This document shows positions 17,327 to 42,929 of a stretch of DNA of 54,494 nucleotides, piece by piece. A program made the position numbers and the translations under genes. The notes under the pieces were generated by a model. That model did no database searches and was not told the origin of the DNA. It worked only from the letters and a program-made list of their open reading frames with translations. Position 1 is the stretch's first letter; each line of letters opens with the position of its first letter. The DNA lies in sequence record SRR20825006_2186; one strand, written 5' to 3'.

Positions 17327-17342
17327 TTGCTTTATGCCATAT

Positions 17343-18272: not shown

Positions 18273-18284
18273 CCTATCTTTTGC

Positions 18285-18292: not shown

Positions 18293-18311
18293 TAAAGTAA
18301 ATATAGCCAAG

Positions 18312-22152: not shown

Positions 22153-23346
22153 CTATTTACTCATGAACAATAGCATTTGTTTTGCAATATTATTTCTTTT
22201 AAAATCAGCCACAAAGGTATCAAACGGATATTCTTTGTTTTTTTCAGTTTTTAGCTTTTTCACCTTATTTATAAATTCCTCTTTATTTTCAGGTTCATAG
22301 GATTCACCTATTCCATAGCTCTCAATCAATTCTTTAGATTCTCCTTCCACACCCAAGAGTATAGGTTTGTGCATGGCCGCCAGCTCAAATATTTTTGATG
22401 GAATCACAGATTTAAAGGTTGTCGACTTCTTGAGGTTTACAAGTCCTACATCTAAGATTGAAATGTACATGCCAACTTTATTTTTGGGTACCGAATCCAA
22501 CATCGTAACATTTTTTAATGCTAGTTTTTCCTTTAGGTTAAATAGATTTTCTTTCTCCGCTCCTGAGCCCAAAAACAAAAAATGAATATTCGGGTCCTTG
22601 ATTTCCTTAGCGGCGATTAATACAAAATCGAGTTTATGTGCCATCCCATGGGTACCTATGTACCCGATTATAAATTTTCCCTCTAAATCATGGTTTTTTA
22701 AAATCTCTTGGTTTTTTGGCGATGGTTGAAACAGCGAGTCATCGATTCCATTTTTAAACACTCCTATTTTGCTGGATGGAATATTATGCTTTTCAATCAA
22801 TTGCTTTTTAAAGCTATCTGTGACAGTAACAATTTTATAGGCAGTTTTATACATTCTTCTTTCCAAATACTCAAAATACCTGATGATAAAGTTGCTCTTC
22901 ATAGCACCTACAGCTTTTATGGATTCTGGCCAAATGTCCCTCACCTCCATAATCCATTTTTTCCTTTTTAAAATGGACAGCCATCTACCTGCTATAGCGG
23001 TAAAAAATTGTGGAGACGTGGCTATAATCAAATCTGTTTTTATAAAAAGACCTGCGAATATTGCTGAAATCATAAAGCTGTTATAGTCCACAATTCTTTT
23101 TATGAAGCCTTCGTTGGCGGCAATATAGGTCCAAACCCGAATTACCCTGATACCGTCGATCCACTCTTCTTGTCTCAGTTTATTTTTATAGCCCTCAAAA
23201 ACCTTCCCTTTTGGGAAGTTTGGTGCTCCGGTAATGACCGTTACATCTGCCCCTTGTTCTACCCATTCCTTGCAGTGCGCATAAGTGCGTGAAGCAGGGG
23301 CATTGAATTCGGGGGGGAAATTGTCCGTTAGAAAAAGAATTCTCAT
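22153..23346 (-). CDS. GT4 glycosyltransferase (WbuB-like)
   Basis: MRILFLTDNFPPE, APNFPKG, ATSPQFF, EVRDIWPES, IPSKIFE. Confidence 0.92.
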   Translation of the reverse strand: MRILFLTDNFPPEFNAPASRTYAHCKEWVEQGADVTVITGAPNFPKGKVFEGYKNKLRQEEWIDGIRVIRVWTYIAANEGFIKRIVDYNSFMISAIFAGLFIKTDLIIATSPQFFTAIAGRWLSILKRKKWIMEVRDIWPESIKAVGAMKSNFIIRYFEYLERRMYKTAYKIVTVTDSFKKQLIEKHNIPSSKIGVFKNGIDDSLFQPSPKNQEILKNHDLEGKFIIGYIGTHGMAHKLDFVLIAAKEIKDPNIHFLFLGSGAEKENLFNLKEKLALKNVTMLDSVPKNKVGMYISILDVGLVNLKKSTTFKSVIPSKIFELAAMHKPILLGVEGESKELIESYGIGESYEPENKEEFINKVKKLKTEKNKEYPFDTFVADFKRNNIAKQMLLFMSK

Positions 23347-24917
23347 CTATTTACTTTTCTTATGGTTGTCTCTAAAGTTTGATTAAAACTCACCTCAATT
23401 TTAATTGCGCTTCTTCGGATATTGAAGCCTTCCGCAATATGGCATGACTGATTGGAAACCTTTATTCCCTCTCCTTTAAAAAAGATCACAATTCCTTCTG
23501 TTTGCAAAATGACTGAATCCTCCTCTTGTTCTATATTGATGATACTTGGATGGAAATGAAAATGTGCGACTGCACATTCTTTTTGGTTTTTGATACTATC
23601 AATTATTTTGAATCCACTATCCTCAATCCTAAACTCTCTTTCATGAAGGGTAGGGTAATATCCATTGTGAGAGGCTTTAATATAACTATCCCCTTCTTCA
23701 AGTTCAACGACCTTGGCCCTTTTGCCCACTCTAAAACCACCCCAAACCTGTGTCTGTTCTCTGTTGCCTATTTTAACAGTATTGTGTGCGGCGGTTTCTC
23801 GCTCTTTCTGTCTTAATTGGTTTTTTTCATAAGTTGAAGTTCCTGTATCCACAAGTATTGGCTTCTGGTCCACATACAGTTCAAAACTAAAAGTATCGGA
23901 ATGCGCATGACCCAGTTGATAATCTGGACCAATATTTCCCACGTCCATAAAAACTTCAAAATTGGTCCTTTCGAACTTTCGATATCCAGAATCATCCAAT
24001 CTACCGGATTTCCAAGTTATACCAAGTTCTTTGGCATAATTAAAAAGAGTTTGGGATGATGGGGCAATTTCATAAGCACTATCATTTACCATAGGAATAT
24101 TGCCGTTGGAAAAAGTTGCCGTTTGAAGCCATGAAAGCATTTTTACAACCTTCTCCTTTAATAATGGTAACAGTCTGTCAGACCTCCAAGGATTCGATTG
24201 GGAAAGATTTATACAGTCCAGTAAACGATGCAATAAAATCTGATGGTACATGGGAGACAGCTCAAAGTGGGCACCATCGTTCAAAACCTGTTCCTCCAAT
24301 TCTGTTTTTAGAATAGATTCTACCTTTTGGTAAAGTTGTTCATCCTTGAAATAGTATGCTCCAAAAAATAGCGAAAATCCATTTTCCAAGAGATGGTTTC
24401 CCAATAGATGGTATTCCAGATTGTGGTACAGCCTCTGATAGTGCTTGTAAAGGGTTTCGTTTATAGCATGGTCCTTTATCTGGTTTCTTGAAAGAAACTT
24501 TATCCAGTTTATCCCTCTCAACGAAATTGGATAGGGTTCAAGCCCGTCTTGCAATTGCTTTTTGGTCTCCATGTAATCCTTGATTAAATCAAGGCCCTTT
24601 TTTGTTGTTATACTTTTTTGGTTGAGGAAATCAAAATAATTAAGGTTATAGGTCCACAATTTTCCAAAGCCACTATAGTTCCAATCTATCTGTCCCTGAA
24701 ACTGGTGTGAAACATTTAGAAAGCAAAATGTTTTTTCCAAAAAAAAAGAATCAGCAAAAAATACAGGGTCATTCCATTTCAATGGCTCAATTTCCTTTAT
24801 CAATGGTTTGTTATAAGCTGTATTGCCAAACTTTTTTCTTGCCAAATAATATAGTCGATAAAAAACCTGCTTTTGGCGCAGGTATCTAATAGTATTGATG
24901 AGCTTTAAAAAATTCAT
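23343..24917 (-). CDS. Heparinase II/III-like protein
   Basis: LEYHLLGNHLLEN, DGAHFELSPMYH, GHAHSDTFSFEL, VDTGTSTY, AHNTV. Confidence 0.9.
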   Translation of the reverse strand: MNFLKLINTIRYLRQKQVFYRLYYLARKKFGNTAYNKPLIKEIEPLKWNDPVFFADSFFLEKTFCFLNVSHQFQGQIDWNYSGFGKLWTYNLNYFDFLNQKSITTKKGLDLIKDYMETKKQLQDGLEPYPISLRGINWIKFLSRNQIKDHAINETLYKHYQRLYHNLEYHLLGNHLLENGFSLFFGAYYFKDEQLYQKVESILKTELEEQVLNDGAHFELSPMYHQILLHRLLDCINLSQSNPWRSDRLLPLLKEKVVKMLSWLQTATFSNGNIPMVNDSAYEIAPSSQTLFNYAKELGITWKSGRLDDSGYRKFERTNFEVFMDVGNIGPDYQLGHAHSDTFSFELYVDQKPILVDTGTSTYEKNQLRQKERETAAHNTVKIGNREQTQVWGGFRVGKRAKVVELEEGDSYIKASHNGYYPTLHEREFRIEDSGFKIIDSIKNQKECAVAHFHFHPSIINIEQEEDSVILQTEGIVIFFKGEGIKVSNQSCHIAEGFNIRRSAIKIEVSFNQTLETTIRKVNR

Positions 24918-26161
24918 GCCAGCAAAGTATTCTTTTCATTGTAGGTAAGCAGTCCAATAAAAAAAAGCACGGGTAAAATCCCTGCTTGTCTGCTTAAAAA
25001 CGGTTCAATCATACAAACGATAAAAACGATTCCTGTATAGATCATGAGTAAAATATTCTGATTGTAATATGCCCTGCGAAAAATTGATATAAAAATTCCA
25101 AAAAACAAAAAAAATCCAATAACCCCAGACCCGATAAACGTTTTTAAAAACTCATTATGTGGGTCATATACGCCCTTATATAGAAGAAATGTAAAGTCAT
25201 TCTTTATCAGTTTTTCTTTCATTTTAGTATTGATGTCGCCAATGCCATAACCAAATACGGGTGCCTCGCCAATAAGCTCCAGGGAACACTTTGTGTATTG
25301 AAAACGTTCTATTAGGCTTCCTTCCTTCTTTTCGTTAATGGCCCCCATTTGTTCAATGGACTGACGGAACCTGGTTTTTGCCAAATAAAATCCCAAAGAC
25401 ATAATAAGAATGAAAACCGACATGATTATCATTCGCTTTTTTGCCTTGCTCTTTCTAAGCTTTTGGTAGGTAATGTAACACAATAGGGCCACCAAGAGCA
25501 TGATGGCAATTTTGGACACCAATAAGAAGATTACAAATATGAATGTAAAGGCAACAATATATCTGAAAACTCTATTTTTTAAAATATCCTTATTAAAATA
25601 AAGAAACAAAAAGGCAGATAGCAGTGAAAAGGAAAAGTATAGCCTGTGCACATCGAACACGACAAAGTTTGCGCCACCATGGTATGCTATATAATGAAAA
25701 GTTTCCAGAGTTATGCCTTCATTGATCGTACGGTCAATGAAATAAAACTTTTCGGTGATAAAAAAATGGGCCAAATGGGCGAAACAGTAGAGGCATATCA
25801 AAAAGTTACTTATTACAAAAATTCGCATCATCTGGAATGAAGGCCACTTTTTGACCAATAAAAACAAGAGGGGGGCTGCTAGATAAAACAACCTGTGTTC
25901 AATTGCTTTTAATCCATTTGATGTGTCAGTTGACCATGCTATTGTAATCAATTGCCACAAAAAAAGAAGAATGAAAAATATAAAGGAGCTTTTGAATGTT
26001 TGAATGTTGTTTGTGATACCAGACCGTTTTGCACGAAAGATTGCCATTAATATCATCAATCCTATTAATGGCGCCAATATCTTGACATCTAACGGCAGTA
26101 AAAAAACAAATATGCCAGTGACCCAAAAAGTTACTTTTTCAAGATATTTATCTTTAACCAT
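24914..26161 (-). CDS. O-antigen ligase / Wzy_C family membrane protein
   Basis: About 11-12 TM segments; ER...FGYGIG..., DPHNEFL...GVIG periplasmic motif. Confidence 0.87.
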   Translation of the reverse strand: MVKDKYLEKVTFWVTGIFVFLLPLDVKILAPLIGLMILMAIFRAKRSGITNNIQTFKSSFIFFILLFLWQLITIAWSTDTSNGLKAIEHRLFYLAAPLLFLLVKKWPSFQMMRIFVISNFLICLYCFAHLAHFFITEKFYFIDRTINEGITLETFHYIAYHGGANFVVFDVHRLYFSFSLLSAFLFLYFNKDILKNRVFRYIVAFTFIFVIFLLVSKIAIMLLVALLCYITYQKLRKSKAKKRMIIMSVFILIMSLGFYLAKTRFRQSIEQMGAINEKKEGSLIERFQYTKCSLELIGEAPVFGYGIGDINTKMKEKLIKNDFTFLLYKGVYDPHNEFLKTFIGSGVIGFFLFFGIFISIFRRAYYNQNILLMIYTGIVFIVCMIEPFLSRQAGILPVLFFIGLLTYNEKNTLLA

Positions 26162-26165
26162 TCAT

Positions 26166-28286
26166 CTATTCAATTGTGATCCATTGTTGCCTTTGTAAAG
26201 ATTCTATAGCTGCAATGGAGGTCTTGCTTGTGTTAATTATTTCATCAAATGAAATAATTGGATTCCCCCCATTTTGCTGTTGATGTATTAATTCTTTAAA
26301 CTGGTTAAAATGCCCTTTGTCCTGTTTGGAGGACATGTTCTTCCCGTTCTTAAAACCATAAGTCTTCAATTTTCTCCAATTGTCCATGATCATGGTTCTT
26401 CCTTGGGAATACACTTCTACACGCTCTTTGGAATATGCTTTACTGCCATTTGAAAAATAGTTGATTGTTGCATTGGCACCGTTTTCGTATTTTAGAAGAA
26501 TACTGGCATTATCCGTGTTTTCTTTTGGGTTCATCCCCATCGCATTCATGCATACAGCTTTAACATTGCTCCCTGATAAATAATTACACAAATCGATGTA
26601 ATGACAGGCTTCTCCAATTATTCTGCCCCCCCCTATTTCCATGTCATGTACCCAAACATCCGAGGGTATAAATCCGGCGTTCATAGTTGCTACGATATTC
26701 ATTGGGCTATTATTATTGCCCAATAATTGTTTCATCCTTTTTGCAATCGGGGCAAATCTTCTATTGAAGCCGACGTTTAAACTAACATTTTGGTCTCTAT
26801 ATACATCTATTATTTCCTGAATTTCGGAATAGGTCAATGCCAAAGGTTTCTCAACAAAAACACTTTTTCCCGATTTTAAGGTTTCCAGCACCATTGGTGC
26901 ATGCATATTGTGCTTTGTTGTAATTAAGACCAAATCCACTTCATTATCTCCCAGGATCTCATGATAATCCGAAGTGGACTTCGCGATTGAATAGCGTTTA
27001 GCCATAATCGTGGAGGATAACCCCCCTGAGCTGCCAATATATTTTATATGGGCATTCAATTTTTCTAAATTGGGTAAAATGGTTGAGCTTGTAAAGTTAC
27101 CAGCTCCAATAATTCCAATAATCCCCTTTTTACCTTCAAAGGAAGTTTCCTTTATGGTTACGGTACTGCTTGGTTCACTTTCCTGATTGTACTCCAAAAT
27201 TGAGGCAATTGACTTGGAACCGCTCATATCTCCATAAATATTTTGAAAGTCCTTTAATGGTACTCGCTCAGTAATTAAAGGTTTTACATCTACAGTGCCT
27301 TTTGAAATCGCGTTCAATATGGCTTCAAAATTTCTTTTTTCGGTCCAACGGACATATCCGATTGGATAATCATTACCTTTTTGTTCGTATTCCTCATCAT
27401 ATCTTCCAGGGCCATAGGAACAAGATACTTGGAATGAAATTTCTTTTTCGTAAAAATCTGCTCTACTAATGTTTAGACCAATAACCCCAACCAAGACAAC
27501 CCTTCCTCTTTTTCTACACATTTTGGCTGCTTGTGAAATAATCTCATTGCTTTTATTGGATGCGGTGATAATTACTCCGTCGGTACCTATTCCCTTGGTA
27601 TAAGATTCAACAAATTTTACTTGATCGGTACCCTCAGCCGGATTTATGGCCTTAATACCCTTTTCCGCGGCTATCCTTACCTTATCGGGATCAAAATCAA
27701 AACCAATAACATTGCATCCATTTGCCATAAGCAGTTCAGCTGTTACCAAACCTATAAGACCAAGACCAACCACTACCATAGTTTCACCAAAAGTTGGGTT
27801 CAATAATCTTATACCTTGCAACCCAATGGCGCCAATAACAGTAAAAGTAGCCTCGTCGTCAGTAACGTTATCAGGAATTTTAACCACCAAATTTTTGGGG
27901 ATGTTCACATATTCTGCATGATTTCCATTCGAGGCAACACGATCACCAATTTGAAATTCCGTTACACCTTTACCTACACCAATTACTTCGCCCACATTAC
28001 AATACCCTAGAGGCAATGGTTGGTTCAGTTTATTGCGGACAGAATCTATTGTAGGCTTTAGGCCATCGGTCTTTACTTTGTCCAAAACCATTTTTACTTT
28101 ATCTGGTTGTTGTTTGGCTTTTTGGATAAAATTTGCCTTTCCAAACTCGACCAACATACGCTCAGTACCTAGGGACACCAACGATTTTTTGGTCTTGATC
28201 AGAACATGACCTGATTTTACCTTGGGTACTGGCACTTCTTCCAATATTGTTTCCCCGTTCTTTATATCTTGGATTATCTGCTTCAT
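26166..28286 (-). CDS. Bi-domain oxidoreductase (MDR/Zn-ADH-like + Gfo/Idh/MocA)
   Basis: 706 aa; SLVSLGTE, PLGYC, VGLGLIG, SCSYGPGRYD; second Rossmann IGAGNF, VFVEKP, GFNRRF, GGRIIGEACHYID. Confidence 0.92.
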   Translation of the reverse strand: MKQIIQDIKNGETILEEVPVPKVKSGHVLIKTKKSLVSLGTERMLVEFGKANFIQKAKQQPDKVKMVLDKVKTDGLKPTIDSVRNKLNQPLPLGYCNVGEVIGVGKGVTEFQIGDRVASNGNHAEYVNIPKNLVVKIPDNVTDDEATFTVIGAIGLQGIRLLNPTFGETMVVVGLGLIGLVTAELLMANGCNVIGFDFDPDKVRIAAEKGIKAINPAEGTDQVKFVESYTKGIGTDGVIITASNKSNEIISQAAKMCRKRGRVVLVGVIGLNISRADFYEKEISFQVSCSYGPGRYDEEYEQKGNDYPIGYVRWTEKRNFEAILNAISKGTVDVKPLITERVPLKDFQNIYGDMSGSKSIASILEYNQESEPSSTVTIKETSFEGKKGIIGIIGAGNFTSSTILPNLEKLNAHIKYIGSSGGLSSTIMAKRYSIAKSTSDYHEILGDNEVDLVLITTKHNMHAPMVLETLKSGKSVFVEKPLALTYSEIQEIIDVYRDQNVSLNVGFNRRFAPIAKRMKQLLGNNNSPMNIVATMNAGFIPSDVWVHDMEIGGGRIIGEACHYIDLCNYLSGSNVKAVCMNAMGMNPKENTDNASILLKYENGANATINYFSNGSKAYSKERVEVYSQGRTMIMDNWRKLKTYGFKNGKNMSSKQDKGHFNQFKELIHQQQNGGNPIISFDEIINTSKTSIAAIESLQRQQWITIE

Positions 28287-29051
28287 TTAGCTCAGTAATT
28301 TTCTTTTTTCTTCTTTATTGGGGTAGTTTATCAAAACGGCCTTAAACTTTCCCTTGAAAACAAATAGGCTTCCGGCTGCCACACCAATAATCTTGTATTT
28401 GGCGATAACATTTTTAATGTCTTCCAAGCTACCGGCTCCTCCCAATACAGTTAATGGTAAATCTATTGCAGATCTTACCAAGTCGATTAAATTAATATCA
28501 TAACCTTTCATTACACCATCATTGTCAATGGAATTGACTACAATTTCTCCTGCTCCAAGGGATTCAAATTTTTTAGCAAGATCTACAGGATTCTTTCCTG
28601 TGGATTTAGTACCGTTGTTTGTGTATACCTGATACTTGCCGAATAACCCCTTCTTTTTTACATCTAGTACTACAATAACACTTTGCACTCCAACTGCGTT
28701 CGCGATATCGGTCACTAAGTTTGGATTTTCAATTACAGCTGAACTAAGTGCTACCTTTTCTGCCCCCAGATGAATAATTTTTTTGGCATGTTCCACTGTT
28801 TTAACACCTCCTCCATAGCATAATGGCATTCGGGATTCGTTGGCAAGGTTTTCGATCATTACAAAGTCCGGTTCCCTTCCTTCTTTTGTGGCATCGATAT
28901 CGAGGACCATAAGTTCGTCCACTTCCTTTTCATTAAATATTTTTACCGCATTTATGGGGTCGCCGACATACTTACCTTCCTTGAATTGAACAGTCTTTAC
29001 AAGTCCTTTGTTCTTTACCAACAAACAAGGTATTATTCTTGAGCGAAGCAT
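28287..29051 (-). CDS. HisF-like cyclase subunit of sugar amidotransferase (WbuZ/AglZ type)
   Basis: RIIPCLL, YVGDPINAVKIFNEKEVDEL, AAGSLFVF..AVLINYP; inside the polysaccharide locus. Confidence 0.92.
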   Translation of the reverse strand: MLRSRIIPCLLVKNKGLVKTVQFKEGKYVGDPINAVKIFNEKEVDELMVLDIDATKEGREPDFVMIENLANESRMPLCYGGGVKTVEHAKKIIHLGAEKVALSSAVIENPNLVTDIANAVGVQSVIVVLDVKKKGLFGKYQVYTNNGTKSTGKNPVDLAKKFESLGAGEIVVNSIDNDGVMKGYDINLIDLVRSAIDLPLTVLGGAGSLEDIKNVIAKYKIIGVAAGSLFVFKGKFKAVLINYPNKEEKRKLLS

Positions 29052-29054
29052 AGA

Positions 29055-29669
29055 TTATAGGTTTGCGAAGTTTTTAAATAATTGAATCCCGTTGCTATGG
29101 CTCTTTTCTGGGTGGAATTGCATACCAAAAATATTTTCGTGGTTCACTGCTGAAGAAAATTCAAGTCCATATTCGGTTGTGGCTAGGATATCATCTTTTG
29201 AACTACAGGAAAAATAGTAGGTGTGAAGAAAATAAAACCCTTCTTCAAATCCTATATTATCAAAAATAGGATGCCTTTTTACTGGCTCGATACTGTTCCA
29301 TCCCAAATGCGGCAAGTGAGGTTTGTGCTCAAAAATGTTACTGTCAAACTTCTTTACTTCCCCATCGATGAAACCTAGACCCTGCAGTTTTCCCTCATCA
29401 CTGCGTTTTGCCAATATCTGCATGCCAACACAAACTCCCAAGACCGGTATTTTGTTTTCCAGTACCAATCGGTTTAATTCAGCCTGAAACCCAGAATCCA
29501 AAAGCTCCTGCATTGTTTCGTCAAAAGCACCAACACCAGGTAAAATCAGCTTTGTAGCGTCGCCAAGTTGTTCTGGGTTTTCAGCAACTACACATTCTAT
29601 ATCCAACTGTTTATAAATATTTAAAATGGCCTGAATGTTCCCAGATCCATAATTTACGATTTTTATCAT
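29055..29669 (-). CDS. HisH-like glutaminase subunit (WbuY type)
   Basis: LILPGVGAF, catalytic GVCVGMQ, PHLGWN, QFHPEKS. Confidence 0.93.
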   Translation of the reverse strand: MIKIVNYGSGNIQAILNIYKQLDIECVVAENPEQLGDATKLILPGVGAFDETMQELLDSGFQAELNRLVLENKIPVLGVCVGMQILAKRSDEGKLQGLGFIDGEVKKFDSNIFEHKPHLPHLGWNSIEPVKRHPIFDNIGFEEGFYFLHTYYFSCSSKDDILATTEYGLEFSSAVNHENIFGMQFHPEKSHSNGIQLFKNFANL

Positions 29670-30796: not shown

Positions 30797-30825
30797 TATA
30801 GATTCCTCTTTACGTTTTTACTTAA

Positions 30826-31986: not shown

Positions 31987-32594
31987 TCATTCATTTTTTG
32001 GATGAAAAGTTTTGGGTCCCTAATATAAACTGCCAACCTTATAAGTTTCTCATCAGTAAAGTTCCACCATTCAGATTTTAACAGTTCGGCTATAATCGAT
32101 TCTGAGAATCTTTTCTTTATCTCGAGGGCCGGTACTCCACCTACAATCGTGTATGGGGGTACGTCTTTTGTGACAACACTACCCATTCCCACCACTGCCC
32201 CCGTCCCAATGGTAACGCCTTGTTTTATAAGTACATTTTGACCAATCCAAACATCATGGCCGATTTTTGTCTCAAGGATTTCCTTACGCTTGTGTGTGGC
32301 ATATTTTTTTTTTACACTATCCCTTCCTTCATAAAACACAGGAGATGTGGAAACCCAATCGATTGGATGCATCCCTCCACCAACTATGACTCCATTGGCT
32401 ATGGAACAAAAAGATCCTATCTCGGCATGGTTTATGTCGCAATTGTAGCCACAGAATGAATGTTTGTCCATTGAGGAGTTTACAAAATTGGTACCTGCCT
32501 CGACCTTTGATGTAGGATGAATTTTTGAGTGTGCTATTGCACTGCCCCTTATTTTTTTAAAAAATTTAGCCCAATAATAAATGAGTTTTTTCAT
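31983..32594 (-). CDS. Hexapeptide-repeat O-acetyltransferase (CatB/XAT-related)
   Basis: [41 protein letters not shown]. Confidence 0.9.
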
Positions 32595-32627
32595 ATACCT
32601 TATTTTATCATTCGAAACTAATAGTTA

Positions 32628-33740: not shown

Positions 33741-33760
33741 GTTTGGTCGTTGTTATAAAT

Positions 33761-34930: not shown

Positions 34931-34966
34931 GTATTTATATTGTAGTTCTGCCCAGAGTACTATTGA

Positions 34967-36034
34967 TTATCCTAATAAACATTTTTTAAGGAACCCCAAG
35001 GAACTAGTTCTTTCATCTTGCATTATCTGATCTATTTTTTCATAATCAAAGTCGTCCTGCAGGACTTTTTCGTCAATGTCCTTTAGATTATGGAATAACC
35101 TGTCCTTTCTGTTTATAAGTCCCAAAAGATTCTCTATTCTGGTAATGCCTCGATTGGGATTGGACAACACAATGAACTTCTTGTTGAAAATTATGGAAAA
35201 TACGGTGCAGTGGAACGAATCTGTTACAACTATTTCACTCTTACCAATATAATAAAGCCATTTTGCAACACTGTTAAATAACCAAAAGTCATACTTGTTG
35301 GAAATCTTTAACCCCTTGATTTTTTTAAATTTTAGGTTGTTTTTTTTGGCAAATGCCTTAAAAAATAATTTGTTCTCCTTCGAATCGTCCAAAAGCATAT
35401 AAGACAATAAATTGTTTTTGCCTTTTTTAGCTTTTATTTCTCGTTTTACAATATTTTCATAATGGCTCTTGTCCAAGAGCAAGGTCGAATCAAGAACCAA
35501 TTCAGCTTCTGCGTTGAAGATATCATTGCATATTTTTACTCCAGAAGCTTCACGCACAGAAATATGATCAAAACGCTGTACCAAATTGCCAATTTCATTA
35601 GTAATCTCCTCATTACCTTCCCATTCATCCAAACCGAAACTGGCAGCGTATGATACTTTTTTATTCTGTCGGTTTACGAAATCAAAAAAATAGCGCCTCA
35701 GATTATCATGTTGTTCCCTGTAACGCCATACTTGGTCACTGCCAACAATAAAGGTGTCCAACTCTTTGTTCAAATCACTGATATCGCTGCCAATGGGAAG
35801 AATATCAATATACTTATTCCTGAATCTTGTGAAATTATATCCTAGCAAAAATCGAATTAAATCGAACAATTGTTGTTTGAGACCATTGGACGTTTTCGGC
35901 TTAAAATCAATAATCTTAACATCCAATCCCAATTCCTTTACCGCATTTAAGATCGCATAGGTTTGTAATAGCGCACCAAAATTATTGTTGGAATAATGAA
36001 ACGTTAAAATTCCTACTCTAAGACTCTTCTTCAT
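34967..36034 (-). CDS. Polysaccharide pyruvyl transferase family protein
   Basis: NFGALLQTYA, IVGSDQVW, SYAASFG, ISVRE, VTDSFHCTVFSI. Confidence 0.93.
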   Translation of the reverse strand: MKKSLRVGILTFHYSNNNFGALLQTYAILNAVKELGLDVKIIDFKPKTSNGLKQQLFDLIRFLLGYNFTRFRNKYIDILPIGSDISDLNKELDTFIVGSDQVWRYREQHDNLRRYFFDFVNRQNKKVSYAASFGLDEWEGNEEITNEIGNLVQRFDHISVREASGVKICNDIFNAEAELVLDSTLLLDKSHYENIVKREIKAKKGKNNLLSYMLLDDSKENKLFFKAFAKKNNLKFKKIKGLKISNKYDFWLFNSVAKWLYYIGKSEIVVTDSFHCTVFSIIFNKKFIVLSNPNRGITRIENLLGLINRKDRLFHNLKDIDEKVLQDDFDYEKIDQIMQDERTSSLGFLKKCLLG

Positions 36035-37557: not shown

Positions 37558-37592
37558 AATGTGATTCTAAATCGACAAGCATTAGGCCTGGT

Positions 37593-38975
37593 TTATTGTC
37601 CCCAGTTGAATGTCCTTTTGATTTTATTCCATATTCTCTTGGTTAAACTTACCTTGTTCAACTTGGAATTAATAGCGATAAATGGCTCGAGCTCTTTTTT
37701 TAAGGCGCTCAAATCTTCATGGTTTTTTGAGCTAAAGGAAACCTCTTGCATTTTAATTCGATTCTCGTAGATACGAGCTCGTTTCTCGTCGGCAAGTTTC
37801 TGAGCAGAGTATCTTTTTTGTGGCCTCCATTCGTTATTTTTATCCTGGAGAAAAAGTCGATGTCTCAATCCCTCCCTCCTATGCCTAAACCCTCCTGCCT
37901 GACTCTTTATCAAATCTTCTTTGGAAAGTTCTTCGACAAAAAGGGTTTGCTCTTCCACCCCTTTTTTTATGAGCTCATCCAGATATTGGTTTCTTACCAC
38001 AATTACATTGGTTCCCTTGGCATCATCCAAATATTGTGGAAGCCAGGCATCTCCAAAAGAGATATCCGCTGTTTCTCCAATCACATCGTCACAATAGTCA
38101 CATGCTTTCAATTTAAATAGGTTTAATCCCCAATTGGTACCAAACAGACTCTTGTTGAGTTTGACTTTTTTTTCGTTGGAGGTGGTTAGGATAGATGTGC
38201 CATAATCCGAAGCCGATCTGTTGGGTATCTTATGTCTAAAATCAAACTTTATCAATTCCTGTTTGGGAACGCCAAATTGATTCAGAAGCACATCCATGTA
38301 GTGTGTTGTTTTCAAATGACCACAAAAAATGGAAACTGTATGGACAATCCTTTCCTTGAACACCTCTTCTGAAAATCTCAACAGTTGTATGCCTTTAATG
38401 AAACATGGCACGCCCACAATTGCATACTTTCCCGGATAGTTCCTAATTCTTTCCAGTACTTTTTCCAATGTTATCGGATAATACCGCGATTTGGCACCTT
38501 CTTGTAGTTCCAATAGGTTGGAACTTATGTCATATTCATAAAAAACATCGCTTTTGTCATTGTCGGATTGTTTCACATGAATAATAAAATCCACCTTCCT
38601 TTCATTGAACAATTGAGCGCATAGCCATGAGACCCCTCCCCCTGAACTTCCTTTTTGCCTATAGTCCCCTTCCTTTACAAACCCAGCATAAATACTCCTA
38701 AAATGACCTATTTCTTTTTCCCTCATGATCTGATCTACATTGGAAAACAATTTTTTAGAAATATTGTCTTCATTGAAATCATGATTAGCAAATGGACAAA
38801 CCACGTGTGTTTCAGAAGCGGCAGAAGAGCTCTTATAGGGTTCAAAATTACCATTGGAGGTTAGGCCCATTTTAAGAACGCTTCCCTCCGAAGCGGTACA
38901 GACGCCACAACCGGAACAATATCCTCCTTTGACCACAGTGTCCATTAATTCTTTCGTTGAGACCTTTGATAACAT
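37593..38975 (-). CDS. FrhB/FdhB-family (F420 hydrogenase beta-like) Fe-S flavoprotein
   Basis: CSGCGVC...VCP ferredoxin, GSSGG, KSRYYP, VGVPCF, FCGH, ACDYCDD..ADISFGDAW. Confidence 0.9.
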   Translation of the reverse strand: MLSKVSTKELMDTVVKGGYCSGCGVCTASEGSVLKMGLTSNGNFEPYKSSSAASETHVVCPFANHDFNEDNISKKLFSNVDQIMREKEIGHFRSIYAGFVKEGDYRQKGSSGGGVSWLCAQLFNERKVDFIIHVKQSDNDKSDVFYEYDISSNLLELQEGAKSRYYPITLEKVLERIRNYPGKYAIVGVPCFIKGIQLLRFSEEVFKERIVHTVSIFCGHLKTTHYMDVLLNQFGVPKQELIKFDFRHKIPNRSASDYGTSILTTSNEKKVKLNKSLFGTNWGLNLFKLKACDYCDDVIGETADISFGDAWLPQYLDDAKGTNVIVVRNQYLDELIKKGVEEQTLFVEELSKEDLIKSQAGGFRHRREGLRHRLFLQDKNNEWRPQKRYSAQKLADEKRARIYENRIKMQEVSFSSKNHEDLSALKKELEPFIAINSKLNKVSLTKRIWNKIKRTFNWGQ

Positions 38976-38986
38976 ATTTATGTGAT

Positions 38987-40201
38987 TTAGTTGTTCATGA
39001 TACCACAGAAATCAAGTACCTGTTTCCCTCTTTCAATCGTTAATTCCTTAAATTGTTTGTGTGCAACCAAAAAAGCAATAATGTCTGCCTTATCTACCGC
39101 TTTTTGATAGTCTGTCAGCTTAAATACTTTATGCGACGTTATATTTGGCTCCACAATGTAATATTCCTCGTCTTGTGCATTCTGTAATACCTTTTGTACA
39201 ATATATTTTGCAGGTGATTCTCTTAAGTCATCAATATTAGGCTTAAAGGCAAGCCCCATCAAAGCTATCTTGGGTTTGCGACCATGTTTTAATTGGAACT
39301 CCAATTTTGTGTTCTTAATCTTTTCTGCGCACCAAAACGACTTATAATTGTTTATCTCCCTGGCGGTACCAATAATTTTTGACTCCATAGGATAGTCAGC
39401 AACAATAAAATATGGATCTACTGCTATGCAGTGCCCACCAACACCACATCCGGGGTTTAAAATATTAACCCGTGGGTGCTTATTCGCCAACGAAATCAGT
39501 TCCCAAACATTTATTCCAGCTTTATCGCATATCAATGATAGTTCATTGGCAAAAGCGATTTGAACATCCCTTGATGAATTTTCCACCAACTTGCACATTT
39601 CAGCAGTTCTTGCATTGGTTTTATGTAGTGTTCCTTTTATGAACTGCGCATAAAATTCAGCAGCTTTATCTGTTGAAACATCATCAATCCCTCCAATTAC
39701 CCTATCATTGTTTACCAACTCAAACATTACATTTCCGGGCAATACTCTTTCTGGGCAATAGGCTACATAAAGTTTTCCTTTAAGTTCGGGCCTATGTTCG
39801 TATATTAATTCCAACATTCGCTCAGTGGTCCCAATGGGAGAGGTTGACTCAATAATATATAAATCCTCCTCCTTTAATAATGGTATTATTGCCAAGGTTG
39901 CAGCTTTAACAAAAGAGATGTCGGGCTGATTCTTATCCTTAAATGGTGTTGGAACAACAATGATATAAGTGTTTGCCTTTACAGGTGTAATAGCTGCTTT
40001 CAAATACCCATGGGTCACCGCTTTTAATACTGCTTCATCCAGTTCAGGCTCTACAATGTGTATTTTCCCGGCATTAATCGTTTCTACCACCTCCGGATTA
40101 ATGTCTACTCCGTGGACATATCTTTTATTCTGGGCAATCAATGCAGCTGTTGGCAAGCCTATGTAGCCCATCCCAATCATTACAACTTCTGGTTGATTCA
40201 T
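38987..40201 (-). CDS. wecC: UDP-N-acetyl-D-mannosamine dehydrogenase
   Basis: GMGYIGLPTA, YCPERVLPG, AEMCKLVENSSRDVQIAFANEL, GVGGHCIAVDP, FKPNIDDLRESP. Confidence 0.94.
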   Translation of the reverse strand: MNQPEVVMIGMGYIGLPTAALIAQNKRYVHGVDINPEVVETINAGKIHIVEPELDEAVLKAVTHGYLKAAITPVKANTYIIVVPTPFKDKNQPDISFVKAATLAIIPLLKEEDLYIIESTSPIGTTERMLELIYEHRPELKGKLYVAYCPERVLPGNVMFELVNNDRVIGGIDDVSTDKAAEFYAQFIKGTLHKTNARTAEMCKLVENSSRDVQIAFANELSLICDKAGINVWELISLANKHPRVNILNPGCGVGGHCIAVDPYFIVADYPMESKIIGTAREINNYKSFWCAEKIKNTKLEFQLKHGRKPKIALMGLAFKPNIDDLRESPAKYIVQKVLQNAQDEEYYIVEPNITSHKVFKLTDYQKAVDKADIIAFLVAHKQFKELTIERGKQVLDFCGIMNN

Positions 40202-40206
40202 TTTTT

Positions 40207-41799
40207 TTACTTTTCTTGGGTTTTATTTGTGCCTTTAAACATAAATGGTCCTAAATCTATCTGCTCCTTGTTCCTTTTTTGTCCATCAAAATCTATTTGA
40301 GGGGCATTTTTTAGGGTCCCAATACCGATACAAGGAGATGTTTCCGTTAAGTGATAATCCCCATTTTTCAAATCAACAAAATTTGGGTCGAATGGAGTTA
40401 TACTTACTCCTTGAGGTGCCTCAAAACCATTGTTCCAAAAATTGGTGAATTCAAAGTCAAAATTCACTTCAAGGGGGTTTACCGAAAAAAAGGTGCTTCT
40501 AGAATAGTTTTCTACGTTGGTGACAATACAGTTGACCATCTTGTTGTCTACATTTTCCCTGTCGGCATTTATCAAAAATTCACCCCCGTCAAAAACACAG
40601 TTCATAAAAGTGTTGTTGTCAACAATCGACATTGTTGCAGGATTGTAATGGAAAAATTTTATGGCATTCTCTTTGGAGTTTCGGAAAACACAATTCTCAA
40701 AAACGTTAAATCTGCCGGCATATTGGGCGCCTTCATCTTCTGTTGTGTCAAAAAATAAAATTGAGGAGGCTGCGCCATCAGATGTGCAATTTCTGATTGT
40801 ATTATAGCTGGCGCCATCTCTAATCGAATACCCACAATTAATTGCCTTGCAATTTTCAATAAGGTTGTTTTTAACCCCCCTGTGCCTCAATTCATACCCG
40901 TTTATTTTCATGTTCACGGCAACACAGTTTCTTATGATGTTGTTTTCACAATCTCGTTTAAGATCAATTCCATGTCCATTATATTTTAGATTGCCTACTC
41001 GTTCCACATAGCTGTTCTCAATAATGTTGTAGTTACCACCTACATGGATATAATAATCCATTGCACTATTGTATCCTGTTGAATTATCATTGCTATATAT
41101 GCGACAATTATTGACACGATTATGATTTCCATAAATTGACAGACCTTCTGCGCATGCATTGTATACAATGCTATTTTCTATTGTATTGTAGCTGCCAATG
41201 CTTTTTTTGTTGTTGGCCCCAAAGGCAATTTCCTTTCCATTGTATTCTTCATTTACATCCCCAAAAAACATGGCAACAATCTTATTGATATTAACATAAT
41301 GAGCATTTAAAGCGTAGAGCCCAATCTTGTAGTTGGTGATTTGGATGTTTCTTATGTTGATATATTTTCTGTTGTGCAAAGATATCCCTATACCTGAAGT
41401 CCTGTTGTTGCCATCCAATAGTGGCATCTTGTCCGGATTCAGACCATCTCCATATTCCCAATTTAGTTTTGGGGCATCCCCAGGTATGGATGAATATCCT
41501 TCAAAAGTTATCTGCTTATTAGCTCTACCATTTCTTTCAAAAACAACGTTCTCATTACTGTAGTCACCTGCCTTTATAAAAACTGTATCGCCTGGTTTAA
41601 CTGGACTTTTTGAAGATGCCGCATATGGAATGGTGCGCCAAGGTTTGGATTGGGACAAACCACTGTTGTCATCGTCTCCTGACAAGGAAACATAATATGT
41701 TTTTTGGGCAGACAATATCATAAAATTGCCAATTGCCATTAGGGCAATAGGTAGCAGTTTTAGAATTCCAATTCTATTTTTCGTCAATTCAACGATCAT
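40207..41799 (-). CDS. Secreted right-handed beta-helix protein (pectin lyase-like fold)
   Basis: Signal ending LSA-Q; YYVS..GDDDNSGLS..PWRTI, PGDTVFIKAGDY, Asn-rich N.I.N repeats, C-terminal DP.FVD...DYHL...SPCIG...DLGPF. Confidence 0.85.
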   Translation of the reverse strand: MIVELTKNRIGILKLLPIALMAIGNFMILSAQKTYYVSLSGDDDNSGLSQSKPWRTIPYAASSKSPVKPGDTVFIKAGDYSNENVVFERNGRANKQITFEGYSSIPGDAPKLNWEYGDGLNPDKMPLLDGNNRTSGIGISLHNRKYINIRNIQITNYKIGLYALNAHYVNINKIVAMFFGDVNEEYNGKEIAFGANNKKSIGSYNTIENSIVYNACAEGLSIYGNHNRVNNCRIYSNDNSTGYNSAMDYYIHVGGNYNIIENSYVERVGNLKYNGHGIDLKRDCENNIIRNCVAVNMKINGYELRHRGVKNNLIENCKAINCGYSIRDGASYNTIRNCTSDGAASSILFFDTTEDEGAQYAGRFNVFENCVFRNSKENAIKFFHYNPATMSIVDNNTFMNCVFDGGEFLINADRENVDNKMVNCIVTNVENYSRSTFFSVNPLEVNFDFEFTNFWNNGFEAPQGVSITPFDPNFVDLKNGDYHLTETSPCIGIGTLKNAPQIDFDGQKRNKEQIDLGPFMFKGTNKTQEK

Positions 41800-42929
41800 A
41801 AGCTATGATTATTGATAAATTGAACAATCCGTTCCGATGCTTTTCCATCACCATAAGGATTATGCAATTTTGTCATCTTTTCATAAGCATCTTCGTCTTC
41901 TAACAATTTTGATGCTTTCGAAACGATTAGATTTTTATCTGTGCCCACCAAAATAACTGTTCCAGCATCAACGGCTTCCGGTCTTTCTGTTGTATCCCTC
42001 ATTACCAAAACTGGTTTCCCCAAACTAGGCGCTTCTTCCTGTACACCTCCACTGTCGGTTATTATCAAATACGATTGGTTCATGAGCCATACAAATGAAG
42101 GGTAAGATAAAGGGGCAATCAATTCTATATTCGGCAAATCACCAAGTATTTTGTATACAGGTTCTTGAACTTTAGGATTTAAGTGTACTGGATAAACTAT
42201 TTGAACATCACTATATTTTTGGGAAACTTCTTTTAACGCTTCGCAAATGTTCAAAAACCCTTCTCCATGGTTTTCTCGACGGTGCCCCGTCACCAAAATT
42301 AATTTTTTATTCGCGTTCAAAATCTGTGACAACCTGTTGATTTCCTCATCCTCATATGTACTAGAACTCACTTTAGCAACGCTTATCTTCAACGCATCAA
42401 TTACTGTATTACCTGTTACTACAACCGAATCTGAAGGCTTGTTTTCCTTTAAAAGATTTTCTTTAGATGTTTCCGTTGGCGCAAAATGAATGTCACTGAC
42501 TACTCCCGTGACACATCGGTTCATTTCTTCTGGGAAAGGAGATTTTTTGTTAAAGGTTCTCAACCCCGCTTCAACATGGCAAACTCTTGACCCAGAATAA
42601 AAGGCTGCAATACTTGTAGCCATTGTTGTTGTGGTGTCACCATGTACGTAAACATAGTCCGGTTCAAACTCTTCGAGAACTTCTTTTAAATTCAAGATGA
42701 TGTCTGCCGTTAAACCATAGAGGTTTTGATTGGGTTTCATAAGGTTAAGATCGTAGTCCGGTTTTATCTCAAAAAAAGACAGAACCTGATCCAACATTTC
42801 CCTATGTTGCGCAGTAATACAAACTTTGGTCTCGAATTCATCCGTATAATTCTCAAATTGCTTTACTAAAGGAGCCATTTTGATGGCCTCTGGACGAGTC
42901 CCAAAAACAATAAGGTTTTTTTTCTTCAA
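41796..42929 (-). CDS. wecB: UDP-N-acetylglucosamine 2-epimerase (non-hydrolysing)
   Basis: FGTRPEAIKMAP, VHGDTTT, HVEAGLR, TGHRREN, TDSGGVQEEAP, NPYGDG; TTG start. Confidence 0.97.
   Translation of the reverse strand: MKKKNLIVFGTRPEAIKMAPLVKQFENYTDEFETKVCITAQHREMLDQVLSFFEIKPDYDLNLMKPNQNLYGLTADIILNLKEVLEEFEPDYVYVHGDTTTTMATSIAAFYSGSRVCHVEAGLRTFNKKSPFPEEMNRCVTGVVSDIHFAPTETSKENLLKENKPSDSVVVTGNTVIDALKISVAKVSSSTYEDEEINRLSQILNANKKLILVTGHRRENHGEGFLNICEALKEVSQKYSDVQIVYPVHLNPKVQEPVYKILGDLPNIELIAPLSYPSFVWLMNQSYLIITDSGGVQEEAPSLGKPVLVMRDTTERPEAVDAGTVILVGTDKNLIVSKASKLLEDEDAYEKMTKLHNPYGDGKASERIVQFINNHSL

Follow-up and report, generated by a model that had tools for sequence, protein, structure and literature searches.

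A candidate route from UDP-D-ManNAcA to an L-configured amino-uronic acid in a flavobacterial surface-polysaccharide locus

An operon in the window (the whole stretch of DNA analysed, 54,494 nucleotides from sequence record SRR20825006_2186) on balance appears to make and install an L-configured 2-amino-uronic acid, starting from UDP-D-ManNAcA and using a heparinase II/III-like protein (HEP), a bi-domain oxidoreductase (FUS) and a glycosyltransferase of the GT4 family. Their genes lie together with wecB, wecC and that of a WecA-like transferase in a single minus-strand operon running from about 46287 to 20016 (Table 1), which is tightly packed, with 4-nt overlaps at the Wzy_C/HEP, HEP/GT4 and WecA/SDR junctions. 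The genes named in a sequence-only reading of this DNA were all recovered by Pfam and NCBIfam profile matches, in their assigned places and on the minus strand. The initiating transferase that it had set beside GT4 is also there, beginning 18 nt outside the range that it had covered. That reading was silent on the Wzy_C gene and on the WbuX/HisH/WbuZ acetamidino module.

Table 1. Features of the operon, with the profile matches on which their assignment is based
Feature	Coordinates	Strand	Profile match
wecB, non-hydrolysing UDP-GlcNAc 2-epimerase (to UDP-ManNAc)	41796-42929	-	TIGR00236, 509.9 bits (cut-off 210); Pfam Epimerase_2, E 3e-124
Exported beta-helix protein	40207-41799		
wecC, UDP-ManNAc 6-dehydrogenase (to UDP-ManNAcA)	38987-40201	-	NF008286, 522 bits (cut-off 459)
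WbuX-type N-acetyl sugar amidotransferase	29666-30796	-	TIGR03573, 326.2 bits (cut-off 203)
HisH-like glutaminase subunit (WbuY equivalent)	29055-29669	-	TIGR01855, 221.9 bits (cut-off 105)
WbuZ/AglZ/HisF2 acetamidino-modification protein	28287-29051	-	NF038364, 383.9 bits (cut-off 310)
FUS, 706-aa bi-domain oxidoreductase (MDR + Gfo/Idh/MocA)	26166-28286	-	Pfam and NCBIfam matches
Wzy_C-family membrane protein (polymerase or ligase-like)	24914-26161	-	Pfam Wzy_C, E 7e-20
HEP, 524-aa heparinase II/III-like protein	23343-24917	-	Hepar_II_III_C, E 8e-49; Hepar_II_III_N, E 1.5e-12
WbuB/WcaI-like GT4	22153-23346	-	Best NCBIfam match WcaI family, E 7e-40, 137 bits (below cut-off 276)
WecA/WbpL-like polyprenyl-phosphate HexNAc-1-P initiating transferase	20984-22135	-	Glycos_transf_4, E 3e-31; TIGR02380, E 7.5e-40 (below cut-off)

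How would such a sugar be made? WecB and then WecC would form UDP-ManNAcA, and their family assignments bear out the earlier statement that the pair makes UDP-D-ManNAcA. Going from there to the L-galacto configuration means inversion at both C3 and C5, as had been correctly stated. HEP, a cytoplasmic protein with a polysaccharide-lyase fold, would take the C5 proton beside the carboxylate and re-protonate C5 from the other face, yielding the L-gulo epimer; since the monomer has a free hydroxyl at O4 instead of a glycosidic leaving group, re-protonation would be expected rather than elimination. FUS would invert C3 by oxidation to the 3-ketone and reduction from the opposite face, giving UDP-L-GalNAcA, with one nucleotide-binding domain for each half-reaction. 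Either domain could serve either step, and the two proteins could act in either order. WbuX, HisH and WbuZ, to judge from their adjacency, would probably turn the 2-acetamido group into 2-acetamidino to give L-GalNAmA, and the translationally coupled GT4 would attach the L-sugar to HexNAc-PP-lipid, the product of the WecA-like transferase. The proposed split, in which HEP is the C5 epimerase and FUS the C3 redox epimerase, is plausible. The same net change is brought about by GDP-mannose 3,5-epimerase, a single SDR enzyme that works via a 4-keto intermediate, and it has been proposed for Bordetella WbmF/G/H in the synthesis of L-GalNAc3NAcA, again with SDR enzymology and a 4-keto intermediate. 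Unlike the single-SDR nucleotide-sugar 3,5-epimerases, the route suggested here would use two proteins of other folds. A 4-keto uronate, being a beta-keto acid, tends to decarboxylate, and this risk may be the reason for a different, two-protein solution.

What is a protein with a lyase fold doing in a biosynthetic operon? The structure model of HEP (pLDDT 91) matched heparinase III (PL12; 5jmf, E 4e-23) and lyases of families PL17, PL33 and PL15 in Foldseek, with E values reaching 1e-13, and at the sequence level HEP matched heparinase III 5jmd (E 7e-13). Residues N174, H175, Y224, H225, H337 and H339 do not vary across 33 sequences, and they include the Asn, Tyr-His and His aligned with heparinase III. 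By analogy, the chemistry common to HEP and these lyases would be abstraction of the C5 proton from a uronate. The model also matched human dermatan-sulfate epimerase 1 (6hzn; E 3e-12, TM 0.56, 13% sequence identity), which has the lyase fold and epimerises uronate C5 without cleaving. The link between the heparinase II fold and this epimerase, drawn earlier, thus finds support in the model, the likeness being one of fold. The human enzyme has a polymer as its substrate and works in the secretory pathway of eukaryotes, whereas HEP is proposed to act on a nucleotide sugar or a fresh residue. Of the solved structures related to HEP, almost all are lyases, which counts against an epimerase. Still, HEP is plausibly a uronate C5 epimerase, whose substrate would be UDP-ManNAcA or a residue that has just been transferred.

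Exopolysaccharide operons often include a lyase or hydrolase for their own product, AlgL of the alginate operons being an example. With lyases as its closest solved relatives, HEP might be imagined to degrade or trim the polysaccharide of this locus in that way, FUS then being an unrelated sugar oxidoreductase. This seems very improbable. A Kyte-Doolittle hydropathy scan found neither a signal peptide nor a TM segment in HEP (top 11-residue mean of 0.85 in residues 1-50; top 19-residue mean of 1.07 in the whole protein), in agreement with the earlier remark that no signal peptide was obvious. The same is true of 75 of the 77 homologues, N-terminal hydropathy reaching 2.0 in only two. Polymers of the Wzy type are assembled beyond the cytoplasm, which would leave a lyase inside it with nothing to cleave. 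HEP is also about 120 residues shorter than heparinase III-type lyases and scores far under the HepC equivalog cut-off (50.9 bits against 700). Unlike these lyases, which belong to polysaccharide-utilisation loci, it is found in a biosynthetic operon, translationally coupled to a cytoplasmic glycosyltransferase and elsewhere fused to GT domains. Moreover, the exported beta-helix protein already present is a more natural depolymerase candidate.

FUS combines an N-terminal ADH_N/ADH_zinc_N half (residues 86-298) with a C-terminal half made up of GFO_IDH_MocA and its C-domain (residues 390-704; Pfam). An NCBI protein from Muricauda ruestringensis matches it with 100% identity; the source is a marine flavobacterium, and this surface-polysaccharide locus also holds rml, pyruvyl-transferase and WbuXYZ genes. 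Both domains of FUS retain their nucleotide-binding motifs, and GLGLIG, D197, GAGNF, E479-K480-P481, E559 and H562 are invariant in 35 sequences. The structures closest to the Gfo domain are sugar C3-dehydrogenases (KanD2, levoglucosan dehydrogenase, GenD2 and DgpA in Foldseek, and the WbpB/WlbA type), with which it has the Rossmann motif, the EKP motif and the Glu/His pair in common. FUS matches the UDP-GlcNAc 3-dehydrogenase family at E 2.6e-26, its score being under every NCBIfam equivalog cut-off. The association of Gfo/Idh/MocA enzymes with oxidation at sugar C3, made in the sequence-only reading, is therefore upheld by structural comparison, and a role for FUS in C3 oxidation and re-reduction is plausible. 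The locus has no aminotransferase partner for FUS, so the ketone would presumably be re-reduced and not aminated.

FUS differs from the sugar C3-dehydrogenases in its additional MDR domain, which is zinc-free: Y95 replaces the zinc-ligand His, and the structural zinc lobe is missing. MDR enzymes without zinc are usually reductases of C=C bonds, not of ketones, which is a point against C3 redox chemistry. Together with the lyase catalytic positions kept in HEP and the quinone oxidoreductase and polyketide enoyl-reductase domains among the Foldseek neighbours of the N-domain, it would suit a genuine eliminase. HEP would then remove the 4-OH of the UDP-uronate to leave a 4,5-ene, and FUS would reduce the product, the MDR domain as ene-reductase and the Gfo domain as ketoreductase, to a 4-deoxy or otherwise rearranged uronic acid instead of L-GalNAcA. 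Such an outcome is unlikely. FUS is missing from 41 of 80 related loci that have HEP, as it is from two E. coli loci; an eliminase there would leave an unsaturated nucleotide sugar and no reductase. In Ralstonia, where the locus carries FUS, HEP and GT4 as well, the polymer contains an ordinary N-acetylgalactosaminuronic acid, as its composition is given in PMC12819619.

The 80 loci, a blind sample fetched with the HEP profile, span Bacteroidota, Campylobacterota, Nitrospirota, Planctomycetota, Clostridia and Methylococcaceae. A GT4-family gene lies immediately downstream of HEP in 61 of the 76 loci having a downstream ORF, and FUS immediately upstream in 29 of 73 having an upstream one; FUS is found anywhere in 39. 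The HEP-GT4-FUS arrangement is not due to chance. What had been seen as a two-protein unit of HEP and FUS is better described as a core of HEP and GT4 to which FUS is optional, a point that is new here. This optional status suggests that HEP alone gives the L-gulo sugar. If so, bacteria with HEP alone would make L-GulNAcA and those with HEP and FUS L-GalNAcA. The WecA-like transferase family is present in 31 of the 80 loci.

The close tie between HEP and GT4, which extends to fusion proteins (P0142 and P0180), could also mean that HEP, and perhaps FUS, work at the cytoplasmic membrane face on an intermediate already linked to lipid. In that case GT4 would transfer D-ManNAcA from UDP-ManNAcA, and only afterwards would the residue be epimerised, on the Und-PP-oligosaccharide, with the same end product. 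Known members of the fold act on glycosidically linked sugars, and no characterised uronate C5 epimerase (alginate, heparan, dermatan) is known to act before polymerisation. We nonetheless think this order of events rather unlikely. HEP has no membrane segment, and an O4-substituted residue would tend toward elimination and not epimerisation. Named members of the WbuB/WcaI group, to which GT4 is related, use L-galacto-configured donors, which fits an L-sugar donor made before transfer. GT4 would accordingly transfer the L-sugar itself.

Does the gene pair travel with wecB and wecC, as proposed? Both genes cluster with HEP and GT4 in all five annotated loci that were opened, three with FUS (Ralstonia EPS I, Parabacteroides distasonis and a Sphingobium plasmid) and two without it (an E. 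coli IncC plasmid and an E. coli chromosomal galF-gnd cluster). In the blind sample, on the other hand, a WecB-family epimerase lies within ±9 kb of HEP in 38 of 80 loci and a nucleotide-sugar 6-dehydrogenase in only 19. When only the 40 loci flanked by 8 kb or more on each side are counted, 11 have a dehydrogenase; of the 26 of these with FUS, only 4 do. Flanks of this size can miss wecC, which in the window is 14 kb from HEP; even so, the low count is a point against the epimerisation pathway.

Two known systems are the closest. The Ralstonia solanacearum EPS I operon has the order FUS-HEP-GT4 ("dehydrogenase - heparinase - glycosyltransferase WbuB"), as in related loci, and includes the ManNAcA pathway as wecB (epsC) and wecC (epsD). 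The uronic acid of EPS I is said to have been assigned the L configuration by Orgambide in 1991. The polymer consists of GalNAc, N-acetylgalactosaminuronic acid and a 3-hydroxybutyrylated trideoxy-hexosamine, as described in PMC12819619, which agrees with the suggestion that the gene set goes with a galacto-configured amino-uronic acid derived from ManNAcA. The Ralstonia dehydrogenase is 47% identical to FUS over the full length, and its WbuB 28% identical to GT4. The HEP proteins of Ralstonia (612 aa, a different subfamily) and Sphingobium are only 16-21% identical to the flavobacterial one and lack the H337/H339 pair; the transfer from EPS I thus rests on synteny and FUS. A bacillosamine-type pathway (DegT, acetyltransferase, PglF-like) takes the place of the rml, pyruvyl-transferase and WbuXYZ genes there.

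The second is WeeE/WeeF of Acinetobacter, which may be of the same families as FUS and HEP; no Acinetobacter proteins are among the 120 matches listed per search. The precedent named in the sequence-only reading has been published: a role for WeeE/WeeF in forming UDP-L-GalNAcA was postulated in 2001, and the pair was renamed gnlA/gnlB in 2022 (PMC9676051). There gnlAB is a predicted module in seven A. baumannii K loci, and it also occurs in the A. venetianus RAG-1 emulsan cluster, beside ManNAcA genes. The prediction is marked there as unconfirmed and gives no mechanism for either protein. No published enzyme assay of the FUS or HEP family was found in the literature. The route may be called uncharacterised as far as enzymology is concerned, but the link from gene to sugar is not new, having been published for Acinetobacter (PMC9676051).

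Unlike the Acinetobacter setting, the flavobacterial locus adds WbuXYZ. The module (28287-30796) abuts FUS, the WbuZ gene meeting the FUS start codon, and WbuX homologues occur in 6 of the 80 related loci, all six with FUS (Fisher one-sided p = 0.011). This adjacency suggests the acetamidino sugar L-GalNAmA as the product, which is also new here; L-GalNAmA is a known natural sugar, described from Vibrio vulnificus YJ016 (PMC3210612). On the other side of FUS, the Wzy_C gene separates it from HEP, an insertion seen in this locus only, and proteins resembling its product are found in just 3 of the 80 loci.

The polysaccharide genes of the window form a single long minus-strand operon (ORF listing and HMM scans), in which several junctions are 4-nt overlaps and purD follows the last gene. 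Every gene named in the sequence-only reading is present. FUS, a fusion of a medium-chain dehydrogenase (MDR) with a Gfo/Idh/MocA domain, and HEP, a heparinase II/III-like protein, are encoded on the same strand with only a Wzy_C gene between them, and by family assignment WecB and WecC are the suppliers of UDP-D-ManNAcA. All three subunits of the acetamidino module, WbuX/HisH/WbuZ, lie above their curated cut-offs. The best match of GT4, the WbuB/WcaI-like glycosyltransferase encoded next to HEP, is NF007640 (WcaI family), with 137.1 bits, which is below the cut-off of 276. Taken alone, the window is ordinary: a normal polysaccharide locus with a module whose role has already been guessed in print.

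Polysaccharide genes of the window, from the start of the operon to its end
Gene or product	Coordinates	Strand	Remarks
rmlD	45511-46287	(-)	operon start; then rmlB, rmlA, rmlC
wecB	41796-42929	(-)	above equivalog cut-off
exported beta-helix protein, 530 aa	40207-41799	(-)	between wecB and wecC
wecC	38987-40201	(-)	above equivalog cut-off
FrhB/FdhB-like protein (F420 hydrogenase beta-subunit family)	37593-38975	(-)	after wecC
Wzx-like flippase		(-)	between FrhB-like and pyruvyl transferase genes
polysaccharide pyruvyl transferase	34967-36034	(-)	a GT4 next in transcription order
EpsG-type polymerase	32628-33740	(-)	then hexapeptide acetyltransferase, then another GT4
WbuX	29666-30796	(-)	TIGR03573, 326.2 bits vs cut-off 203
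HisH	29055-29669	(-)	TIGR01855, 221.9 bits vs cut-off 105
WbuZ	28287-29051	(-)	NF038364, 383.9 bits vs cut-off 310
FUS, 706 aa	26166-28286	(-)	MDR half + Gfo/Idh/MocA half
Wzy_C protein	24914-26161	(-)	between FUS and HEP
HEP, heparinase II/III-like	23343-24917	(-)	
WbuB/WcaI-like GT4	22153-23346	(-)	best match NF007640
WecA-like initiating transferase	20984-22135	(-)	
SDR	20016-20987	(-)	last operon gene before purD

Some features of the locus stand apart from this module. There are two polymerase-like membrane proteins, of the Wzy_C and EpsG families, and the former splits the FUS/HEP pair, which is directly adjacent in most related loci. The FrhB/FdhB-like gene is two genes from the pyruvyl transferase, with the flippase in between. 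The beta-helix gene overlaps wecB by 4 nt, and its product, with an N-terminal hydrophobic stretch resembling a signal peptide, appears to fold as a right-handed parallel beta-helix (ESM Atlas features Pel9A-like/Beta_helix; in Pfam, only a weak match to DUF5123). A role as an exported depolymerase or as a polymer-level modifying enzyme is possible; nothing similar to this gene turned up in the 80 related loci.

How would UDP-D-ManNAcA be turned into an L-configured amino-uronic acid? D-manno and L-gulo sugars differ at C5 only, D-manno and L-galacto sugars at both C3 and C5. In the pathway proposed here, the lyase machinery of HEP would take H5, next to the carboxylate of the uronate, and the enolate would be re-protonated on the opposite face; epimerisation rather than elimination is expected because O4 of the monomer is a free hydroxyl. 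FUS would oxidise C3, through one or the other of its domains, and then re-reduce it from the opposite face, which would explain the fusion of two nucleotide-binding domains. (The Gfo family includes C3 ketoreductases as well as C3 dehydrogenases.) This division of labour, with HEP as C5 epimerase and FUS inverting C3, is a reasonable prediction. WbuX/HisH/WbuZ, directly upstream of FUS, suggest that the final sugar here would be the 2-acetamidino form, L-GalNAmA, and GT4 would then add the L-sugar to a lipid-linked HexNAc. A 4-keto route of the RmlC/GME type (compare GDP-mannose 3,5-epimerase) was set aside as the principal model for a chemical reason: with a uronate it would pass through a beta-keto acid, which presumably makes it unlikely.

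The sole solved relatives of HEP by sequence are heparinase III proteins (5jmd, E 7e-13). Its AlphaFold model (pLDDT 91, alignment of 33 sequences) has the (alpha/alpha) toroid plus beta-sandwich fold, and Foldseek matched it to 5jmf (E 4e-23, TM 0.64), to PL17, PL33 and PL15 lyases, and to human dermatan-sulfate epimerase 1 (6hzn_A, E 3e-12, TM 0.56), bearing out the earlier suggestion that HEP and this epimerase have a heparinase-type fold in common. Residues N174/H175, Y224/H225 and H337/H339 correspond to the GNH, YH and H..D motifs in alignments with 5jmd and 4mmi, and none of the six varies among the 33 aligned sequences; N174, Y224 and H337 occupy what we take to be the positions of the catalytic Asn, Tyr and His of the heparinase III literature. 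However, heparinase III/PL12 lyases are exported and score with the HepC model, whereas HEP reaches just 50.9 bits with that model (NF045573), far under the cut-off of 700, and lacks any N-terminal hydrophobic stretch or transmembrane segment. The signal peptide that had seemed to be missing is indeed absent: within the first 50 residues the Kyte-Doolittle mean over 11 residues peaks at 0.85, and an N-terminal hydrophobicity of 2.0 is reached in just 2 of 77 homologues. Three things contradict the idea that HEP is a lyase that trims chains: its missing export signal, its coupling to a cytoplasmic glycosyltransferase, and the separate exported beta-helix protein in the locus.

The very large HEP family comprises 10,164 cluster representatives (E ≤ 1e-3), annotated merely as 'alginate lyase/heparinase family'. 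Seven atypically long representatives were scanned, and these included two glycosyltransferase-HEP fusions (cluster representatives P0142 and P0180) and one methyltransferase-HEP fusion. The glycosyltransferase fusions fit a rival order of events, in which epimerisation takes place after transfer, on the lipid-linked sugar, rather than on the nucleotide sugar. Unusual uronic acids are known in archaeal glycans, and HEP-family proteins with 25-30% identity are carried by haloarchaeal megaplasmids of Haloarcula, Halobellus and Haladaptatus (plasmid matches H42-H48).

FUS is 100% identical to the NCBI entry 'bi-domain-containing oxidoreductase [Muricauda ruestringensis]', which makes this species, or one very closely related to it, the source of the window. 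The FUS family, also very large, is annotated merely as 'bi-domain-containing oxidoreductase'. The C-terminal half is a Gfo/Idh/MocA domain in which the Rossmann motif GAGNF (394-398), the EKP motif E479-K480-P481 and the acid/His pair E559/H562 are invariant in 35 sequences. Its structural neighbours KanD2, GenD2, levoglucosan dehydrogenase and DgpA are sugar C3-oxidising enzymes, in agreement with the link between this family and C3 oxidation drawn in the sequence-only reading; FUS scores 92.9 bits with the UDP-GlcNAc 3-dehydrogenase equivalog NF040723, under the cut-off of 450. The N-terminal half has the medium-chain dehydrogenase fold, with the GLGLIG Rossmann motif and D197 intact, and its structural neighbours are alcohol/threonine dehydrogenases, quinone oxidoreductase and polyketide enoyl-reductase domains. 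Zinc-dependent medium-chain alcohol dehydrogenases have catalytic and structural zinc ligands, but FUS has neither set: in the alignment to 1rjw, Y95 stands in the place of the zinc-ligand His and nothing corresponds to the structural-zinc loop. Neither S38 nor Y95 varies across the 35 sequences of the family. Such a zinc-free domain fits another reading, in which HEP would act as an eliminase and FUS would reduce both the ene and the keto group, so that another sugar results (for example, a 4-deoxy one). On the other hand, neither the composition of EPS I nor the existence of many loci without FUS agrees with elimination. The FUS model has a pLDDT of 84.6, with loops 55-63 and 291-314 of low confidence yet highly conserved. 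FUS is conserved far more than HEP: across the 39 loci where the two occur together, median identity to the window is 69% (N half) and 57% (C half), and 46% for HEP.

The link from genes to sugar comes from Ralstonia. A tblastn search of PLSDB with FUS returned 139 records, 132 of them Ralstonia megaplasmids, where the match is the EPS I locus: epsA, a phosphatase, a tyrosine kinase, wecB, wecC, two transporters, a transferase and an acyltransferase, then the trio 'dehydrogenase' (FUS), 'heparinase' (612 aa) and 'glycosyltransferase WbuB', followed by a sugar transferase, an acetyltransferase, a DegT aminotransferase and a PglF-like protein. This 'dehydrogenase' is 47% identical to FUS over 713 aa, and the WbuB is 28% identical to GT4. 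The uronic acid of EPS I, as described by Orgambide in 1991, is said to have the L configuration. A Sphingobium plasmid carries nearly the same gene set. The HEP proteins of Ralstonia and Sphingobium form a distant subfamily, 16-21% identical to HEP of the window (E 9e-12), which keeps the NH, YH, HN and Arg positions but lacks H337/H339. Since Ralstonia HEP is so remote, what is carried over from EPS I to this locus rests on conserved gene order and FUS, not on HEP orthology. In a 2026 paper citing Orgambide 1991, the three sugars of the EPS I trimer are given as N-acetylgalactosamine, N-acetylgalactosaminuronic acid and a 3-hydroxybutyrylated 2-N-acetyl-trideoxyhexose (PMC12819619).

The probable gene-to-sugar link is well supported by synteny with a locus of known product, and the earlier interpretation, a route from UDP-ManNAcA to an L-galacto-configured amino-uronic acid, is in part supported; the link is not new, however, having already been postulated in print. 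The Acinetobacter lead of the sequence-only reading turned out to be that postulate: seven A. baumannii K loci have two adjacent genes encoding homologues of WeeE and WeeF from the emulsan cluster of A. venetianus RAG-1, renamed gnlA and gnlB, with the product, UDP-L-GalNAcA, flagged as predicted (Cahill, Hall and Kenyon 2022, PMC9676051). The gnlAB/WeeEF module is here likened to FUS and HEP by description, as a putative counterpart. No Acinetobacter protein was among the 120 matches listed in each of three homology searches, and no Acinetobacter locus among the 80 of the blind sample, which came from an HEP profile search of genome contigs. Within the literature searched, gnlA/gnlB and WeeE/WeeF occurred only in PMC9676051 and its preprint, and the supplement of that paper has no mention of gnlA, gnlB or heparinase. 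The same search found no paper joining 'heparinase' with L-GalNAcA or ManNAcA, or a 'bi-domain' oxidoreductase with heparinase, no mechanism or assay for the module, and no assayed enzyme for making L-GalNAcA, L-GulNAcA or L-GalNAmA.

Other annotated loci show how the module varies. A Parabacteroides distasonis record has a GT4, FUS (65% identity), HEP (41% identity), wecC, wecB and a GT4. HEP with wecB, wecC and GT4, and no FUS, occurs in IS26-bounded segments on IncC-type plasmids of E. coli, Enterobacter and Citrobacter; FUS-less HEP is also found in the chromosomal galF-gnd cluster of four E. coli genomes. Altogether, wecB and wecC accompany HEP and GT4 in all five annotated loci examined, and FUS is present in three. 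A DNA-level search of E. coli genomes with the FUS gene, the reach of which does not extend to distant homologues, gave no match. On the E. coli IncC plasmid NZ_CP034402.1 (locus L085, locus coordinates 6610-19060), the IS26-bounded segment is a small surface-polysaccharide cluster of wecB, wecC, an Amj-like flippase, a polymerase, a glycosyltransferase, HEP, GT4 and a nucleotidyltransferase. Such a cluster is unusual cargo for conjugative IncC-type plasmids.

For the blind sample, species-representative genome contigs from many phyla were searched with the HEP profile; ORFs were called within about 9 kb of HEP in the resulting 80 loci, the 1,025 neighbour proteins were clustered, and the cluster representatives were annotated. 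A WbuB/WcaI-like GT4 was present in 71 of the 80 loci and lay directly downstream of HEP in 61 of the 76 with a downstream ORF. FUS was present in 39/80, directly upstream of HEP in 29 of the 73 loci with an upstream ORF. These counts make HEP plus GT4 the core unit and FUS a frequent but optional addition. Further neighbours were a WecB-family 2-epimerase (38/80), a WecA-like transferase (31/80), an AsnB-type amidotransferase (11/80) and RmlA (2/80). WbuX was found in six loci, all with FUS (p = 0.011), and WbuX/HisH/WbuZ stand directly upstream of FUS in four loci besides the window (L013, L016, L026 and L042). The WecB-like neighbour was considered as an FnlC-type L-FucNAc epimerase, but it scores as wecB (349 bits vs cut-off 210), and FnlA/FnlB-type genes are absent among the recurrent neighbours in the 80 loci.

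The expected co-occurrence with wecB and wecC held in the window and in the annotated loci, but a nucleotide-sugar 6-dehydrogenase (phmmer E ≤ 1e-10) lies within ±9 kb of HEP in just 19 of the 80 blind loci. Twelve of the 21 dehydrogenase proteins are WecC-like, with scores >460 bits. Restricting the count to the 40 loci with flanks of 8 kb or more on each side leaves 26 with FUS, 25 with the epimerase and 11 with the dehydrogenase; just four of the 26 with FUS have the dehydrogenase. In the window itself wecC is 14 kb from HEP, and 9-kb flanks would miss it too; despite this precedent, the dehydrogenase shortfall is unexplained. ManNAcA genes are thus much commoner near HEP than other sugar-pathway genes, but far from universal at about 9 kb.

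A stand-alone Gfo/Idh/MocA gene (~381 aa) is directly upstream of FUS in L002, L009, L018, L039 and L079, and several genes upstream of it in L054, pointing to an additional redox step in these variants of the locus. Two protein clusters, c22 (~757 aa, five loci) and c23 (~320 aa, five loci), had no Pfam or NCBIfam match. They are found just upstream of HEP in mostly FUS-less loci (L066:1320-3593 and L074:7679-8641; members L037, L050, L057, L070, L074-L076 and L078) and may be alternative HEP partners.

From the optional nature of FUS, HEP alone is predicted to yield L-GulNAcA, and HEP with FUS L-GalNAcA. We tentatively suggest, while leaning slightly toward doubt, that HEP could be the first uronate C5 epimerase to act at the level of nucleotide sugars or lipid intermediates, built on a polysaccharide-lyase scaffold and belonging to a modular toolkit spread across phyla: HEP and GT4 for L-GulNAcA, the MDR and Gfo fusion added for L-GalNAcA, and WbuXYZ added for L-GalNAmA. 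L-configured amino-uronic acids such as these three occur in the capsules, O-antigens and biofilm matrices of a wide range of bacteria; examples are Ralstonia EPS I, a cause of wilt, and the capsules of Acinetobacter. In the sections concerned, L-GulNAcA of the V. cholerae VPS is expected to come from D-ManNAcA via C5 inversion, with no enzyme named (PMC3901696), while L-GalNAmA is recorded for V. vulnificus YJ016, and L-GulNA for Idiomarina, V. parahaemolyticus K15 and Pseudoalteromonas, in a review (PMC3210612). If a lyase fold does serve as a cytoplasmic C5 epimerase, thousands of annotations would be corrected, sugar composition would become predictable from K- and O-locus sequence, and enzymes would be gained for making rare L-uronic nucleotide sugars. 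If the toolkit reading is true as well, the rare L-amino-uronic acid of a glycan would be predictable from gene content.

Beyond the polysaccharide genes, an ArsS-type arsenosugar-biosynthesis radical SAM protein (TIGR04167, 445 bits vs cut-off 300) is encoded at 13539-14627 (+), a few kb outside the locus. The region is flanked by type IX secretion components, PorW/SprE and a PorE/CHU_0125-like OmpA protein (5433-7964 (-) and 51963-54041 (+)), which are consistent with a Bacteroidota host.
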